12,358 nt of DNA from Sulfuricurvum sp. (GCF_028712165.1 NZ_JAQTQR010000077.1:1-12358); one strand, 5' to 3'. Numbered from the stretch's first letter, positions 1-9,003 are shown. Notes: a model not told the origin generated them from the sequence alone. Program-made: numbers and translations.

Positions 1-670
1 CACTGTCCAAAACGGTAGGCGTTCCCATCACTTCTATCTCTTTGGCTAGTCCTATCTGAACGTTTATGATATCCATCAAATGTTTATCTTCATCGGCATT
101 CAATACAAGCTTTTTATACTCTTGGGAGCCATTTGCGATAGCTAAGAGTCGCTCAGCCATATCCTCTTGATCCGCTCCTTTGAGAACCCATTTGCTCATC
201 GGTATTGCGTCTTGATGAAATGACAACGGGAAGAGGTAGATTTTAAAAGTGTACTTTTCTTTGAGTGTCGGCATGATTTTCTCGAATTGCTTACAGTAAG
301 GGCATTGCGGATCGACAAAAACATAGAGGACTTCACTGCCGGTTCCGTAACTGAATGCTTCTTTCCCTGCAATAACATTTTTATCTATCGGAAAGCTCAC
401 TCTTTGTTTTGTATCGGTACGAATAGCATTGCCTGTTATCAGAATTTTTTTGTCTTTAGTGATAAAAAAATCAAACGGTCTTTTCTCTTGACCATCAACG
501 ACACGTGTCGGCAGCCCTTTAATGAGATATACGCTTCCTTCATCTTGAACTTTTAGAATCTGTATTTGACTCTCTTTGATGATATTTAAAGCACTTAATT
601 CTGAGAGTATCGGATCATCCGCCATTACAACTGAGGCTATCGAAAACAGTGCTGTTGCTATCTTTTTCAT
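1..670 (-). CDS. Thiol:disulfide interchange protein, DsbC/DsbG-like (C-terminus runs off the window start; partial)
   Basis: Minus-strand ORF starts at ATG 668-670 behind SD AAGGGA (5-nt spacer) and stays open to position 1. The translation begins MKKIATALFSIASVVMA (signal peptide) and contains VFVDPQCPYCKQFE, a thioredoxin-fold CPYC active site typical of DsbC/DsbG/DsbA-family oxidoreductases. It is absent from the supplied ORF track only because it has no in-window stop. Confidence 0.75.
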   Translation of the reverse strand, partial: MKKIATALFSIASVVMADDPILSELSALNIIKESQIQILKVQDEGSVYLIKGLPTRVVDGQEKRPFDFFITKDKKILITGNAIRTDTKQRVSFPIDKNVIAGKEAFSYGTGSEVLYVFVDPQCPYCKQFEKIMPTLKEKYTFKIYLFPLSFHQDAIPMSKWVLKGADQEDMAERLLAIANGSQEYKKLVLNADEDKHLMDIINVQIGLAKEIEVMGTPTVLDS

Positions 671-727: not shown

Positions 728-1324
728 TTAATTTAGGTCGCCGTCTTTCCAATACTTTGTCCCCTGAATCGTTGCCTGAAGTGCCAGACCGTTTTGGGTC
801 AATTTATAGAGACGAATGCCCGGTGCAACCGTTATAGCCGCTCCGTATGCATCACCTTTGTCTGCCAGCTTTGCAGCGGCATCGGCTTGTGCATTGGCTT
901 CCCATCCTTTATTGACGAACTGATCAAACACCTCTTTGTCTTTAAAGAGGAATACTGCCCGAAAATCTTTTATACCGAGTCCGAATCCTGCTCCTCCGGA
1001 GGCCATATTCATGTAGATATTTTTTCCAGAACCATTGACATGAGCCATTCCGGTACCCCCCTCTGCGGAGAGGAGAATCAGGTTTACACCGACATTGCTA
1101 AAAGTCGCATAGCCGTAGGAATTGGCAATCATCTCCTTGGCTTCAGGTGCATGTTTATAGAGCAGTTGAAGCGTTTCATCGCTCGATTGGAGACGATTTG
1201 CACGTTGTTCTTCAATCGTTTTGCCGCTCCAGAAACCCGAAAACATAATTACGGCTGCAATGGCCGCTATCGTCATCCATATTGATCGGCTTACTGACAC
1301 CGATTTACATTGTAATTGGTTCAA
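728..1324 (-). CDS. Secreted SYLF/DUF500 (Ysc84-like) domain protein
   Basis: 198-aa ORF. Position 1322-1324 is a TTG start preceded by a strong SD (AAGGAG, 6-nt spacer). The N-terminal hydrophobic segment TIAAIAAVIMFSGF is a likely signal or anchor. The body (GTGMAHVNGSGKNIYMNMASGGAGFGLGIKDF...WEANAQADAAAKLADKG...GLALQATIQGT) matches the Gly-rich pattern of SYLF/DUF500 domains. Confidence 0.55.
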   Translation of the reverse strand: MNQLQCKSVSVSRSIWMTIAAIAAVIMFSGFWSGKTIEEQRANRLQSSDETLQLLYKHAPEAKEMIANSYGYATFSNVGVNLILLSAEGGTGMAHVNGSGKNIYMNMASGGAGFGLGIKDFRAVFLFKDKEVFDQFVNKGWEANAQADAAAKLADKGDAYGAAITVAPGIRLYKLTQNGLALQATIQGTKYWKDGDLN

Positions 1325-1855: not shown

Positions 1856-2389
1856 TTATAACAGTGCTTTTATATCCTCTTCGATTTCTTCAGGGGTCGT
1901 CGCCGGAGCATAGCGAGTGATTACTTTTCCATGACGGTCAACGAGGAATTTGGTAAAGTTCCATTTGATCGCTTCGCTTCCTAAAATCCCGGGAGCCTGT
2001 TGTTTGAGATAGCGATAGAGGGGATGGGTATTGTCTCCGTTAACGTCGATTTTGGCAAACATCGGAAACGTCACACCATAATCGATTCGGCAAAAATTTT
2101 CGATCTCCGGTTCGCTGAGGGGTTCTTGAGATGCAAATTGGTTGCAAGGGAAACCCAGTACGACCAGTCCAATGTCTTTGTAGGTACGATACAGTTTTTC
2201 CAGGCCGGCAAATTGGGGTGTAAATCCGCATTTGCTGGCTGTATTGACGATGAGCATCACTTTGCCGCGATACGGCTCTAATGTGCTTTTTTCCTTATGA
2301 ATGGTTAGAACTTCGAAATCATAGATACTTTTTTCAGCTGTTGACATAAGAGTACTCCATAAAGCGATTAGAATCAGTAAAACTTTCAT
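1856..2389 (-). CDS. Glutathione peroxidase (Cys-type, BtuE/Gpx family)
   Basis: 177 aa with LIVNTASKCGFTPQ (peroxidatic Cys, not Sec), LGFPCNQF and WNFTKFLV, which are canonical Gpx motifs. Start ATG 2387-2389 overlaps the encapsulin stop (ATGA), giving an N-terminal signal-peptide-like segment MKVLLILIALWSTLMSTA. An alternative ATG at 2345-2347 (Met15) with SD GGAG (7-nt spacer) would give a cytoplasmic BtuE-length protein. Confidence 0.9.
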   Translation of the reverse strand: MKVLLILIALWSTLMSTAEKSIYDFEVLTIHKEKSTLEPYRGKVMLIVNTASKCGFTPQFAGLEKLYRTYKDIGLVVLGFPCNQFASQEPLSEPEIENFCRIDYGVTFPMFAKIDVNGDNTHPLYRYLKQQAPGILGSEAIKWNFTKFLVDRHGKVITRYAPATTPEEIEEDIKALL

Positions 2390-3193: not shown

Positions 3194-3568
3194 TTAGCTA
3201 TTGCTTCCGATTTTTAATGTCCCTGAGGATGGTGTAGCAGGGGGTGTATCGGTTTGAGTTGTTTGATCCGCTACTGCGGACTCCTGTACTACGATATCAC
3301 CGCTCGAGAAGAGAAACTTTTGCATCATCGCATCCCACACCGGAGAATTGCGTCTAAGCCACTCCAGCCCCATGCATGCGTGTTCTATCTCTTCGTCACG
3401 GTTATGTTCCATGATTGCTTTTGCAGCAGGATCCGTTGCTGCTTCGGCACGCTGGTTATACCAATCTATTGCTTCGAGCTCTTCCATCGTGCTCTCTATA
3501 ATACGATGATAATCTTTTGTACTTTCCGAAAGTAAATTTGGATCTTCGTGAAAACCTTGGTCTGCCAT
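3194..3568 (-). CDS. Encapsulated ferritin-like protein (EncFtn) cargo with C-terminal cargo-loading peptide
   Basis: 124 aa. The core MEELEAIDWYNQRAEAATDP...HNRDEEIEHACMGLEWLRRN matches the EncFtn ferroxidase-centre pattern (Glu, Glu, His ligands). A flexible Thr/Pro/Ser linker follows, then SSGTLKIGSNS at the C-terminus, matching the Family-1 encapsulin targeting consensus (GSLKIGSL-like). SD AAAGGAG sits 5 nt before the ATG. Confidence 0.9.
   Translation of the reverse strand: MADQGFHEDPNLLSESTKDYHRIIESTMEELEAIDWYNQRAEAATDPAAKAIMEHNRDEEIEHACMGLEWLRRNSPVWDAMMQKFLFSSGDIVVQESAVADQTTQTDTPPATPSSGTLKIGSNS
3197..3229 (-). other. Cargo-loading (targeting) peptide coding segment at the EncFtn C-terminus
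   Basis: The last about 11 codons encode SSGTLKIGSNS. The GxLKIG core is the conserved motif that docks cargo to the encapsulin shell interior. Confidence 0.8.
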
Positions 3569-3810
3569 TGTCGCTCCTTTTGGTTTAATCCTTAGGCTTC
3601 AATGGTACAGCTCTAAAATAACTTAAGTCAATAGACTTAGAGAAGATATGTTTTTATTTATTTTTTTTTAAGAAAGTGATTCTTATAGATGAAAATTTAG
3701 AAATTGAAGTAAAAAGTTTAGGGTATATTTGTATAGATGTCTTATACTTTTTTTTAGATAAACTAGTTATATTTTTAATAGATTTGAAATGGTGAGAGAA
3801 AAGGAATGCG

Positions 3811-5453: not shown

Positions 5454-5470
5454 TCTACATTCCTTTTTTT
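5444..5470 (+). terminator. Putative rho-independent terminator (weak stem plus T7 run)
   Basis: AGGAA (5444-5448) pairs with TTCCT (5460-5464) around an 11-nt loop, followed by TTTTTTT (5464-5470). The stem overlaps the last codons and stop of the 5073-5453 gene. It is short and AT-rich, hence the low confidence. Confidence 0.3.
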
Positions 5471-7298
5471 ACCAGGAACATACACGATTCCGACCGAGCT
5501 CTTTGGCCTGATAGAGCGCTTTATCGGCTTGCTCAAATAAAGTATCGAAGTCTACACCGTCATTTTTCGGAGTGCTGACCCCGAAAGAACAGGTAATGTG
5601 TTCGATTGTAGAAAAAAGATGTTCTTCGATACTGAGGCGGATTTTGTCTGCGATGCGTTCAGCGAGAGTTATATCAAGAGTTCGGATGATGACAATAAAT
5701 TCTTCTCCACCCCAGCGTGCGACTATATCATTTTCCCGCATGATCTTTTTAAGCAAGATTGCGAGTTCTTTCAGGACACTGTCTCCTACCGCATGTCCGA
5801 ACGTATCGTTGATCGGTTTAAATTTGTCGATATCGATAATAATGACAGAAATCTGTTGGAGAAAGGGAGGCGTTGTATCGATGTGTTCCATTAGCCCACG
5901 GCGATTTAGCAGGGTAGTGAGCGGGTCTCGTTGTGCAGACGAACGGAGCAATGTATTATTATTTTTGAGTTCAACCTGTTTGTGATGGACTGTTTCGAGA
6001 AGATAATTGAAAAAGCGTGCAACGATGCCGACTTCCGTATCGCGCTCTTCATAGACTTTGGTCTGCAGATTCCCTGTCTTCATAATACGGATAATGCTGT
6101 CGATGGTTTCTACCCACGGGAGCCTTGCTTGATGTTCCGTTACATTCAGCCCGATTACTTCATTTCGGCCGGAGACACGAAGAGCGTTGAAACGATTTAA
6201 AATAAGAAAGAGGATAATTCCGCTTCCGAAAGCAAAAACGAATGCGCTGACGATACCGAGTGATTGCACGCCTATCAACTCCATGCGGCTCATTCCCTCA
6301 TGCAGCGGAGCAAAAAGTCCTACCGCAAATGTCCCCCATACACCGGAAAATCCATGGATACCTACTACACTGAGCGGATCGTCAATATGAAATTTTTTGA
6401 GTAGCAGCTGATCGGAAAAATACATGATAAAGGCTGAGACAAATCCGACAAACGCCGCTTCGAGTGTTGTCAAATCGGCACATCCCGCCGTAATGCCAAC
6501 CAGTCCGGAAATGATCCCGAAACTAAACAGTTCCACTCCGATCCCTTTTTTCAAAAAAAGGCTGATGAGATATGCGCCGAAACCGCCGAATGAACCTGCG
6601 ATCAGTGTGTTGAGGAGGATAATGCTCACCGAGGAGTTAAAAGCGAGGAGGCTTCCGGCATTAAAGGCAAACCATGCGAACCAGAGGATAAAGACTCCGA
6701 ATACAATAAAGTTGTGGTTACTAGGGGCAAAATTGCTGATCTTACCTTTTCGAAATCTCCCCAGACGAGGCCCTAACGTGATGGCACCGGCGAGCCCTAT
6801 CCATGCCCCCATCGAATGGACGACCGTCGAACCGGCAAAATCGATAAATCCCATTTGTTTCAGCCAGCCCTGAGCACTCCATGCCCAATGTCCGACGATC
6901 GGATAGATCAAGGAAATGACGATGATAGAGACAACGACGTAGCCGTTGAATTTCATCCGTTCTGCAACGGCACCGGAGACGATAGTGATCGAAGTAGCCG
7001 CAAACATGGACTCAAAGAAAAAGAAGCCGTTTTCAGCCGGATTACTGCCGTCAATGAGAAATCCGCTTGTCCCTACGATTCCGTTGAAATCATTCCCGAA
7101 CATCAACCCAAAACCGATCACCCAGAAACACATGACACCGAAAATGGTATCGATGAGATTTTTCATAGCGACATTGATCGTATTTTTTGAGCGGACGGTG
7201 CCGGTTTCAACCATAGCAAAACCGAGTTGCATGGTAAAAATCAAGATACCGCTTAAAACGATCCAAAGCAGGTCAATATTGCTATATTCGCTCATCAA
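5469..7298 (-). CDS. Ammonium transporter (Amt/MEP) fused to C-terminal GGDEF diguanylate cyclase domain
   Basis: 609 aa. The N-terminal about 400 aa are polytopic with Amt-family signatures (MQLGFAMVETGTVRSKNTINVAMKNLIDT..., Gly/Phe-rich TM helices). The C-terminus has DPLTTLLNRRGL, IIDIDKFKPINDTFGH and RWGGEEFIVII (intact GGEEF). RENDIVARW places an RxxD I-site at the canonical spacing. The start is TTG 7296-7298 or the adjacent ATG 7293-7295. Confidence 0.85.
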   Translation of the reverse strand: MMSEYSNIDLLWIVLSGILIFTMQLGFAMVETGTVRSKNTINVAMKNLIDTIFGVMCFWVIGFGLMFGNDFNGIVGTSGFLIDGSNPAENGFFFFESMFAATSITIVSGAVAERMKFNGYVVVSIIVISLIYPIVGHWAWSAQGWLKQMGFIDFAGSTVVHSMGAWIGLAGAITLGPRLGRFRKGKISNFAPSNHNFIVFGVFILWFAWFAFNAGSLLAFNSSVSIILLNTLIAGSFGGFGAYLISLFLKKGIGVELFSFGIISGLVGITAGCADLTTLEAAFVGFVSAFIMYFSDQLLLKKFHIDDPLSVVGIHGFSGVWGTFAVGLFAPLHEGMSRMELIGVQSLGIVSAFVFAFGSGIILFLILNRFNALRVSGRNEVIGLNVTEHQARLPWVETIDSIIRIMKTGNLQTKVYEERDTEVGIVARFFNYLLETVHHKQVELKNNNTLLRSSAQRDPLTTLLNRRGLMEHIDTTPPFLQQISVIIIDIDKFKPINDTFGHAVGDSVLKELAILLKKIMRENDIVARWGGEEFIVIIRTLDITLAERIADKIRLSIEEHLFSTIEHITCSFGVSTPKNDGVDFDTLFEQADKALYQAKELGRNRVCSW

Positions 7299-7508: not shown

Positions 7509-8429
7509 ATGTCTGTACCATATTCCATAAAAACGCTCACTCCTGCCGAAGCTCTTAATCTGATCGAAAAGGGGGCAAAGATCCTTGACCCGATAACCCC
7601 TGAAGCGTATGAGTGTTATCACATCAAAGATGCAATAAATGCCTGCGTCTATGAAGTTTCTTTCTTACAAAAAATTCCCGAACTTTTGCCTGACAAAACG
7701 GTACCCATCATTGTATACGCTAACAGTGCTACATCGCATGAATCCCTTGTCGCCGCCCAAAAGCTCGAAAAACTCGGTTACGGCAGTGTTTATGTGGTAG
7801 AAGGGGGGATTGAAGCACTGGTGCAAGCAGGTTGTATGAGAGAAGGCTCAGCAGACTCACTCTACGAACAGCTCGAATATACATCGGGAAGCTATACAGC
7901 TCAGGCGGAGAGTGCTTTTATCGGTTGGACCGGGCGCAATGCCAACGGTAAACATTATGGTACTGTTAGTTTGAAAGAGGGGGTCATGCATATTTACGGA
8001 GAGAATGTCTATGGTAGTTTTACCGTCGATATGACCGACATAACCGACCTCGATCTTGAGGATGCCTCGTTTGCCAATATGCTTATCACACATTTGAGCT
8101 CTGATGACTTTTTCTCGGTTCAGTCGTTTCCCGAAGCAACGTTTAGCATCCATAGTGCGAAACGTTCTCCCGAAGCCACTGTCAGTTCTGTAAATCACAT
8201 TCTGGAAGGATCTCTCAGTCTCTGCGGCATTACCAAAAAACTCAACATTCCTGCTACCTTTGTTCAAAGCGACACCAATACTTTGGTACTTGAAGCCCAT
8301 TTCGATTTTGATCGTACTCTTTGGGGAATCGCCTACGGTTCAGCACATTTTTTCCGTTTTCTAGGGATGCATGTGGTTTTCGATCCTGTCAGTATTGAAG
8401 TACGTATTGTGTTAAAAATCGCCGATTAA
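7509..8429 (+). CDS. Rhodanese-homology domain (catalytic Cys replaced) fused to YceI-like polyisoprenoid-binding domain
   Basis: 306 aa with SD AAGGA 7 nt upstream. Residues about 1-105 have a rhodanese fold pattern (IIVYANSATSHESLVAAQKLEKLGYGSVYVVEGGIEAL), but the active-site loop has Ala where the Cys is expected. Residues about 120-306 match YceI (HLSSDDFFSVQSFPEATF, LEGSLSLCGITKKLNIPATF, FDFDRTLWGI). There is no signal peptide. Confidence 0.75.
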   Translation: MSVPYSIKTLTPAEALNLIEKGAKILDPITPEAYECYHIKDAINACVYEVSFLQKIPELLPDKTVPIIVYANSATSHESLVAAQKLEKLGYGSVYVVEGGIEALVQAGCMREGSADSLYEQLEYTSGSYTAQAESAFIGWTGRNANGKHYGTVSLKEGVMHIYGENVYGSFTVDMTDITDLDLEDASFANMLITHLSSDDFFSVQSFPEATFSIHSAKRSPEATVSSVNHILEGSLSLCGITKKLNIPATFVQSDTNTLVLEAHFDFDRTLWGIAYGSAHFFRFLGMHVVFDPVSIEVRIVLKIAD

Positions 8430-8535
8430 AAAAGGGAAGGAATTTCACTTTATCAGATTTTTTCATCATATAGAGCCGATTGGTTACTTTAAACGTGTAT
8501 GATTCCGATTAACTTTTAATTGGCGGGTGGAGAAG

Positions 8536-9003
8536 ATGAAGCTAGTGGTATATTTTTTAGTTTTTGTAGCAATTGTGATACAGTTTATCAGACCGGATTT
8601 TAAAAATCCTGCAGTAGATGAGAATGTTGCGTTAAACGCTGATCCTCACGTTATGAGCGTTCTGAAAACCTCATGTTATGACTGCCATTCCAATGAAACA
8701 AAATACCCTTGGTATCAAAATGTCGCCCCCGTCTCATGGATTATGTCGGATCATATCCAAAGAGGACGCAAAGCACTCGATTTTTCAAATTGGGCCAATA
8801 TAGATCCTAAAGTGAAATTAGAACGGTTACAGCGGGCAACGCAAGTCATCAACAATGATATGATGCCGAAACATGATTATCTTTTGATGCATAAAAATGC
8901 TGTTTTGAATAAAGATAAGAAACAAACACTCGAGAAATTTTTTGATTCACAAATACTGGAATTGGGCGGCTCGACAAGTACTCTGAAAAAATTTAATATT
9001 TAA
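8536..9003 (+). CDS. Membrane-anchored heme-binding domain protein (CxxCH; Haem_bd/PF14376-like)
   Basis: ATG 8536 has SD GGTGGAG about 4-5 nt upstream. The track's 8527 start is an in-frame GTG that is less likely. The N-terminal anchor is MKLVVYFLVFVAIVIQFI. The motif SCYDCHSNETKYPWYQNVAPVSW contains a c-type heme CxxCH site within the conserved block of the small haem-binding domain family. Confidence 0.6.
   Translation: MKLVVYFLVFVAIVIQFIRPDFKNPAVDENVALNADPHVMSVLKTSCYDCHSNETKYPWYQNVAPVSWIMSDHIQRGRKALDFSNWANIDPKVKLERLQRATQVINNDMMPKHDYLLMHKNAVLNKDKKQTLEKFFDSQILELGGSTSTLKKFNI

Follow-up and report, generated by a model that had tools for sequence, protein, structure and literature searches.

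A glutathione peroxidase gene (gpx) of Sulfuricurvum sp. appears to have a conserved two-start 5' end, from which an exported and a cytoplasmic form of the same enzyme are predicted. In the 12,358-nucleotide (nt) stretch of DNA analyzed here (NZ_JAQTQR010000077.1; referred to below as the window), the genes for an encapsulated ferritin-like cargo protein (EncFtn), a family 1 encapsulin, and this Cys-type Gpx follow one another in tandem on the minus strand (Table 1). Comparison with related genomes suggests, with moderate confidence, that gpx encodes an ordinary periplasmic-type Cys-Gpx with a conserved two-start 5' end and that it was recently joined, in one lineage, to a canonical two-gene EncFtn-encapsulin operon; the two-start design would then be a property of the gpx gene and not of its encapsulin context. 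Two in-frame starts were found, each with initiation determinants of its own and each conserved among relatives, and we put the chance that both isoforms are produced at roughly even or slightly better. Periplasmic Gpx enzymes and dual localization by alternative initiation are kinds of thing already known; even so, the two-start 5' end appears to be of more interest than the encapsulin linkage, which is of little general significance.

The encapsulin open reading frame (ORF) ends ATC ACA CTA TGA and the gpx ORF starts ATG AAA GTT, so that stop and start overlap by 4 nt, as a first-pass annotation of this DNA had read. The same annotation had claimed that the first gpx ATG lacks a Shine-Dalgarno (SD) sequence of its own, and this held when SD strength was expressed as the pairing energy against a generic anti-SD: the 20 nt upstream (gcggcagttctgatcacact) give -2.3 kcal/mol, compared with -5.6 to -8.3 kcal/mol for most other genes of the window. 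An overlapping stop and start with no independent SD for the downstream gene is the arrangement of a coupled pair, and because both are present here, termination-reinitiation coupling to the encapsulin gene, which the annotation had implied, appears to be the likeliest route to translation of the long form. In the closest relatives, whose encapsulin is about 96% identical, the overlap reads GTGA because the last encapsulin codon there is CTG, which also makes GTG the long gpx start. As a rule, the long start of gpx carries ATGA because codon 2 is always AAA. A -1 frameshift that would fuse encapsulin to Gpx for display on the shell exterior was considered and rejected: no slippery heptamer precedes the TGA, and the two proteins would be linked by the hydrophobic signal peptide.

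The N terminus of the window Gpx reads MKVLLILIALWSTLMSTAEK. The Pfam Gpx domain begins at residue 22 and alignments to PDB structures begin at residues 15 to 21, which places residues 1 to 14 outside the fold. When gpx 5' ends were compared at the DNA level in 12 lineages, including genes annotated only in a short form of 161 to 168 amino acids (aa), an in-frame hydrophobic extension with an open frame and an upstream start was found in all 12. Codon 2 is AAA in 10/10 lineages, and across codons 3 to 10 conservation at the second codon position is 81%, with T in 79%, corresponding to hydrophobic residues, against 53% and 49% at the first and third positions. This codon-position pattern is the signature of a translated frame, and it supports the view that the extension is translated and behaves as a Sec-type signal peptide would, in agreement with the signal-peptide-like character originally proposed for it. 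The rule-based features of a Sec-type signal are present as well: Lys at position 2, uncharged runs of 10 to 15 residues with a mean Kyte-Doolittle value of 2.1 (39 proteins), and, in the window, S16-T17-A18 ahead of E19. Many Gpx orthologs are annotated at 175 to 186 aa. Where gpx stands apart from its upstream neighbor or is separated from it by a gap, the long start has its own SD, at -5.4 to -7.3 kcal/mol (weak in lineage L119, at -3.2); good SDs at stand-alone long starts include AGGAG (L110), GGAG (L121), and AAGGA (L123). Long starts without an SD lie a few nucleotides from the upstream stop codon or overlap it.

The second start, Met15, had been picked out in the first-pass annotation together with its GGAG, and both proved to be present at the spacing and pairing strength given in Table 1 and to be conserved in relatives. 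ATG15 is invariant in 10/10 aligned lineages, Met15 occurs in 39 of 40 proteins annotated in the long form, and GGAG-like SD pairing precedes the internal ATG in every one of the 12 lineages, at -5.6 to -9.3 kcal/mol. The hexamer TGGAGT has a mean conservation of 0.95, within the top 15 of the 515 six-nt windows of the gene and level with the windows of the KWNF, KCG, and FC motifs; adjacent windows in the signal peptide reach 0.53 to 0.70. Protein variants at this site keep the nucleotide motif: a Trp-to-Gly variant (P0082) reads GGG AGT, retaining GGAG as had been predicted beforehand, and a Ser-to-Gly variant reads TGG GGT, retaining the purine run. L123, which has a different type of signal peptide, reads TTT GGA GGA GAT AAA ATG, with GGAGGAG 7 nt before the internal ATG. 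An outgroup of distant Gpx genes was assembled by a metagenome scan with the Gpx alignment (54 to 68% identity, from organisms other than Sulfuricurvum relatives); in nearly all of these 80 genes the start Met lies 2 to 5 residues before the IYD motif, and the hydrophobic extension is found in none. Since the internal ATG coincides with the start of the distant homologs, we take it to be the ancestral start, the signal peptide having been gained through an upstream start. The short form would fit in length the Gpx forms annotated at 161 to 168 aa, and the NCBI model of the closest relative starts at the internal ATG (163 aa). A Gpx variant in one cluster (P0036) has the sequence LWSTLISAPS, in which Ile replaces the internal Met, and may be a natural knockout of the internal start; most other members of this 90%-identity cluster are called at 161 aa. 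A regulatory RNA or structure at the gpx starts was considered and set aside: an Rfam search of the whole window gave no matches, and the 131-nt mRNA region that spans the two starts has less structure than shuffled sequences (z = +1.78), a point in favor of the internal start.

The same 5' architecture is found far from encapsulin genes. Orthologs of gpx with 64 to 80% amino acid identity belong to different, likewise tightly packed operons, in which the gene just upstream varies. In L106 it is an unrelated ORF that, as in the window, overlaps gpx by ATGA; in L107 to L109 and L117 it is a 64-aa ORF with its stop codon, at the DNA level, 2 nt ahead of the long ATG; in L110 to L112 it is an EAL gene, with AGGAG in the 9-nt gap; in L115 it is a ferritin/Dps gene whose TAA lies 2 nt before the gpx ATG; and in L116 and L119 it is a flavin reductase gene and a UbiD gene, respectively. 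Coupling to whichever gene lies upstream thus looks like a general habit of gpx. The N-terminal extension was ruled out as an encapsulin-targeting signal, since it is kept in gpx genes of unrelated operons far from encapsulin. Frequent neighbors of gpx are genes for photolyase, DUF1722/2-thiouracil desulfurase, SDR/DUF2867, lipocalin, SRPBCC, BLUF, and MsrAB proteins, and in L107 to L111, L115, and L117 the gene lies among these and EAL genes. PgpD of Shewanella oneidensis (SO_3349) is a periplasmic Gpx whose signal peptide exports PhoA, and it belongs to the RpoE2-ChrR photo-oxidative regulon, which also includes photolyase, ybgA/DUF1722, and SDR genes (PMC4336711). The gene kinds of the PgpD regulon are those that flank gpx orthologs in other Sulfuricurvum contigs, and the Sulfuricurvum-type surroundings have the look of a cluster for light or singlet-oxygen stress, similar to this regulon. 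The window Gpx resembles PgpD in its family and in its predicted N-terminal Sec-type signal peptide; the window differs in that an encapsulin operon takes the place of the regulon-like neighbors. Shewanella serves two compartments with separate genes, pgpD and cgpD, whereas here one gene is apparently able to make both forms.

Adjacency of gpx to encapsulin is confined to a narrow group. For comparison we used 26 distinct EncFtn-encapsulin contigs, and a scan of one genome per GTDB species gave 21 encapsulin loci. gpx lies beside encapsulin in 3 of the 26 contigs, all with an encapsulin about 96% identical to that of the window; these (L022 to L025) are two NCBI assemblies and one SRA contig, and their flanking genes are shared as well. 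The other 23 contigs, with encapsulins 89% to 41% identical, have no gpx adjoining encapsulin, and a tblastn search with Gpx of the downstream flank (up to 5 kb) in the 21 loci of other GTDB species (encapsulin 88 to 41% identical) found nothing, even at E = 10. In the relative with 89% encapsulin identity (two contigs), a 107-aa ORF and an epimerase/DUF1731 gene come next after the shell gene, as they do in L003. EncFtn precedes the shell gene in 19/21 loci, the remaining two being cut at the contig end, and in L009, L010, L014 to L016, and L020 a G+C-rich hairpin and a T run directly follow the encapsulin stop codon, which suggests that the ancestral EncFtn-encapsulin unit of the Campylobacterota was a self-contained two-gene operon. 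The recurrent co-location that marks a non-cargo accessory of Flp/EncFtn encapsulin operons is not seen for Gpx. As judged from these comparisons, the encapsulin-gpx adjacency is a recent rearrangement within a single narrow Sulfuricurvum lineage and not a functional link conserved across relatives. A full-text literature search gave no description of a Gpx-encapsulin linkage, as had been supposed at the outset; Gpx is not among the accessory genes in the large survey of encapsulin operons by Andreas and Giessen (2021; PMC8346489). The window agrees with the family 1 EncFtn (Flp) operons of that survey in having a cargo gene with a targeting peptide directly 5' of a 265-aa shell gene, at a 10-nt gap, and differs in that Gpx is a lineage-specific neighbor and no component of the system.

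These findings bear on the oxidative-stress operon of EncFtn, encapsulin, and Gpx that the first-pass annotation had proposed, and that proposal did not survive the comparison: in related genomes gpx is absent from beside encapsulin in 23/26 contigs, and where the adjacency recurs the overlap is GTGA. In its fullest form the proposal would make Gpx a dedicated non-cargo accessory, produced in shell-coupled stoichiometry and serving the detoxification of iron and peroxide, a reading that we consider improbable. The 4-nt overlap and missing SD do bind the long form to encapsulin translation, all three proteins are connected with iron or peroxide stress, the arrangement is retained in three contigs from different samples, and a linkage of this kind would be new to the literature searched; but the limitation of the adjacency to relatives with about 96% identical encapsulin, leaving out all other EncFtn-encapsulin contigs, refutes a conserved module by the annotation's own criterion, gpx orthologs with the same 5' architecture are coupled to unrelated upstream genes in unrelated operons, and encapsulins are cytoplasmic, whereas the long form is predicted to be exported. 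For encapsulin biology, this means that a tight, overlapping neighbor of the shell gene is not necessarily a component of the system and may, as here, be a recent juxtaposition.

Other observations weigh against a functional pair of starts, or against the way in which we propose that they are used. In the other genes of the window, 7 of 79 in-frame internal ATGs (about 9%) have an equally strong SD-like motif; given this chance expectation, the window alone is not significant for an internal SD, and the weight comes from conservation in relatives. Two other exported proteins encoded in the window, VVMA/DD and ALMA/AP (the slash marks the predicted cleavage site), have Met at -2 without an SD, so that conservation of Met15 could in part be a peptide-level preference, and the Trp-Ser or Gly-Ser at the boundary between the hydrophobic stretch and the cleavage site could be kept as a helix breaker and not as an SD. 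Ser12 is encoded by AGY in 9/9 cases, a weak test of SD constraint given the relatedness of the lineages and a background AGY share of 42 to 53%. The signal peptide cleavage site is uncertain because many orthologs read LMSAP, with Pro two residues after Met15; the GTG start of the closest relatives could mean that expression of the long form is weak there or that this form is decaying; and a weak promoter consensus match at 2448-2420 makes an internal promoter within the encapsulin 3' end possible. Several of these points would fit a purely periplasmic, PgpD-like Gpx of which only the long form matters, the internal GGAG and ATG being either an ancestral relic or kept at the peptide level (helix breaker at -6/-5, Met at -2). 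We regard this as unlikely, though it deserves serious weight: the translated-frame signature of the extension is clear, exported Gpx enzymes exist, as PgpD illustrates, the representative of the P0036 cluster has Ile for Met15, and the two unrelated exported proteins of the window, which have no such SD, share [VL]-M-A where cleavage is predicted. It sits poorly, however, with a TGGAGT that matches the catalytic motifs in conservation and withstands the changes from TGG to GGG and from AGT to GGT, with the GGAGGAG found before the internal ATG in a second, unrelated type of signal peptide, with the coincidence of that ATG with the start of distant homologs, and with the 161-aa calls for most other P0036 members, which fit a start at the internal Met. 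The opposite reading, in which the cell makes only the 163-aa form, the one in the NCBI annotation of the closest relative, and the upstream stretch is untranslated or a leader, strikes us as highly improbable. PGAP and many gene callers pick the internal start, at which distant homologs begin, and the long start lacks an SD in the window and is a GTG codon in the nearest relatives; yet the extension is open in all lineages with codon 2 always AAA, its second codon positions are selectively kept as T and hence hydrophobic, and the stand-alone genes have good SDs at the long start.

In the reading that we prefer, in which a conserved two-start gpx was recently joined to the encapsulin operon, we infer co-transcription, reinitiation, and export from the features of the DNA. 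A single transcript would run from the conserved promoter 5' of encFtn through gpx, given the 10-nt gap, the 4-nt overlap, and the lack of a terminator in the searches described below. Ribosomes ending encapsulin synthesis at the TGA would reinitiate at the overlapping, SD-less ATG to give the 177-aa precursor, whose first 16 to 18 residues would act as a short Sec signal peptide and deliver a PgpD-like periplasmic peroxidase; separately, ribosomes would bind the GGAG within Trp11-Ser12 and start at Met15, yielding the 163-aa cytoplasmic enzyme. Gpx would be neither cargo nor a conserved encapsulin accessory, and the rearrangement would have placed the exported isoform under the transcriptional and translational control of encapsulin in this lineage only. 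A more ambitious view, which we hold tentatively as a possibility short of a probability, extends this across a clade of Campylobacterota (Sulfuricurvum, Sulfurimonas, and relatives): one gpx gene may serve two compartments, the periplasm from an added upstream start and the cytoplasm from the retained ancestral start, with the exported isoform in the lineage of the window slaved, through the stop/start overlap, to encapsulin translation. If this is true, periplasmic peroxide defense would rise together with the iron-sequestering response.

Internal starts that remove a signal sequence are known from Escherichia coli speA, bamA, ivy, and yghG (Meydan et al., bioRxiv 10.1101/520783), and N-terminal proteoforms from internal starts have been reviewed (PMC13515050). 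These cases resemble gpx in that two in-frame starts lie only a few codons from each other and the product of the second lacks the signal sequence and is expected to remain cytoplasmic. They differ in that they come from ribosome profiling or N-terminomics in one species, whereas the gpx case is comparative only, and in that the internal gpx start, unlike the E. coli starts, is the start position of distant homologs. In mammalian GPX4, an upstream AUG adds a targeting sequence and a downstream AUG gives the cytosolic enzyme; PDB entries of GPX4 are labeled "mitochondrial" and "Isoform Cytoplasmic". GPX4 belongs to the same enzyme family and also uses alternative start codons, but it is a eukaryotic selenoprotein that relies on alternative transcription and scanning, so that the likeness is one of analogy and not of shared descent of mechanism. 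If both gpx starts are used, the gene would be a well-conserved bacterial example of dual localization by alternative initiation, argued from comparative evidence. Recoding Ser12 from AGT to TCT would abolish the internal SD and leave the protein unchanged. Gene callers split this Gpx family between models of 161 to 168 aa and of 175 to 186 aa, even inside single 90%-identity clusters, and compartment assignments for Gpx in sulfur-oxidizing Campylobacterota are therefore inconsistent.

Gpx matches PF00255 with 144.7 bits (cutoff 27), the profile being fully covered (1-108) at residues 22 to 129, and the catalytic tetrad C54, Q88, W143, and N144 and the FC-motif C100 are all invariant in a 34-sequence alignment. 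A selenocysteine Gpx was ruled out because the active-site codon is TGC. The top PDB matches are 6vpd, 3cmi (yeast Gpx3/Hyr1), and 2p5q (poplar Gpx5); with Gpx3/Hyr1 and Gpx5 among the best structural relatives by sequence, knowledge of the family points to an atypical 2-Cys peroxidase, and the window Gpx is probably such an enzyme, dependent on a thioredoxin-fold partner. Its Cys100 we take to be the equivalent of Gpx3 Cys82. Against the BtuE equivalog model NF007900 it scores 193.6 bits, under the cutoff of 270. With E. coli BtuE and yeast Gpx3/Hyr1 it shares the Cys-Gln-Trp-Asn residues and the second Cys in the FC motif; unlike them, it has a hydrophobic N-terminal extension. The C terminus, EEDIKALL (PEEIEEDIKALL), lacks the targeting motif G[TS]L[KN]IG[SN]N, and Gpx is on this ground not encapsulin cargo, as had been recognized from the start. 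Three genes 3' of gpx, past a 70-aa ORF and a SYLF-like gene, lies a gene for a DsbC/DsbG-like thiol:disulfide interchange protein (1-670, minus strand, extending beyond the window end) with a CPYC motif and the signal peptide MKKIATALFSIASVVMA; its family matches are weak (DsbG 4.3e-07, under the cutoff). Speculatively, this periplasmic thioredoxin-fold protein could be the reductant of an exported Cys-Gpx.

The two genes upstream of gpx are canonical. EncFtn scores 144 bits against the NCBIfam model TIGR04535 ferrit_encaps (cutoff 125), and its gene has an AGGAG SD with an anti-SD pairing of -7.9 kcal/mol. The motif G[TS]L[KN]IG[SN]N forms the EncFtn C terminus in nearly all of 20 related loci; we take it to be the targeting peptide, in the role known from family 1 systems. 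Encapsulin scores 148.5 bits against NF041155 encap_f1 (NCBIfam; cutoff 100), its 59 homologs lie in every case on Campylobacterota-type contigs, and its gene, 10 nt from encFtn, has a strong AGGAG SD. The TTGACT and TACCAT elements 5' of encFtn (Table 1) are inferred to act as a promoter: in an alignment of the window region 3569-3700 (minus strand) with the equivalent regions of L001 to L003, L022, and L024, the TTGAC and TGTACCATT blocks are kept in these five other Sulfuricurvum loci. The same upstream region holds conserved blocks running from TCTATTGAC to TGTACCATT, with an A/T-rich stretch farther upstream. No intrinsic terminator was found after gpx on the minus strand, the sole match (1683-1699) being on the plus strand.

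Table 1. Features of the encFtn-encapsulin-gpx region, in window coordinates
Feature	Coordinates	Strand	Basis
Likely operon promoter 5' of encFtn: TTGACT, 18 nt, TACCAT, with TG before the -10 element	3602..3631	-	Consensus scan
EncFtn (encapsulated ferritin-like cargo), 124 aa	3194..3568	-	PF22277 EncFtn-like, 8.3e-39
EncFtn C-terminal encapsulin targeting peptide, GTLKIGSNS	3197..3223	-	Conserved motif
Family 1 encapsulin shell protein, 265 aa	2386..3183	-	PF04454 Linocin_M18, 1e-40
ATGA overlap of encapsulin stop TGA and upstream gpx start ATG	2386..2389	-	Read directly
gpx long form, 177 aa, predicted exported precursor	1856..2389	-	ORF; PF00255 GSHPx, 8.9e-43
Signal-peptide-like N terminus MKVLLILIALWSTLMSTA: n-region MK, uncharged run of 13, S-T-A before E19	2336..2389	-	Rule-based
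Internal SD-like GGAG, within codons Trp11-Ser12	2355..2358	-	7 nt before ATG15, -5.9 kcal/mol
Internal ATG (Met15, codon 15)	2345..2347	-	Conserved; start position of distant homologs
gpx short form, 163 aa, predicted cytoplasmic	1856..2347	-	Same frame from Met15
Peroxidatic Cys54 codon TGC (not TGA/selenocysteine)	2228..2230	-	Read directly
Cys100 codon, likely resolving cysteine, ENFCR	2090..2092	-	Invariant in alignment

Elsewhere in the window, the SYLF-like gene mentioned above (728-1324, minus strand) encodes a 198-aa protein with a hydrophobic N terminus and a weak match to the BPSL1445 SYLF-domain lipoprotein family (58 bits, cutoff 200); this gene and the 70-aa ORF (1450-1662) are again found close to the encapsulin operon in several genomes of Sulfuricurvum, but in a shuffled order. 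The 609-aa protein encoded at 5469-7298 (minus strand), which is kept in the close relatives, joins, by Pfam, an ammonium transporter domain to a C-terminal GGDEF diguanylate cyclase domain. A 306-aa rhodanese-YceI fusion (7509-8429, plus strand) is followed by a heme-binding-domain protein (8527-9003), both likewise recognized by Pfam.

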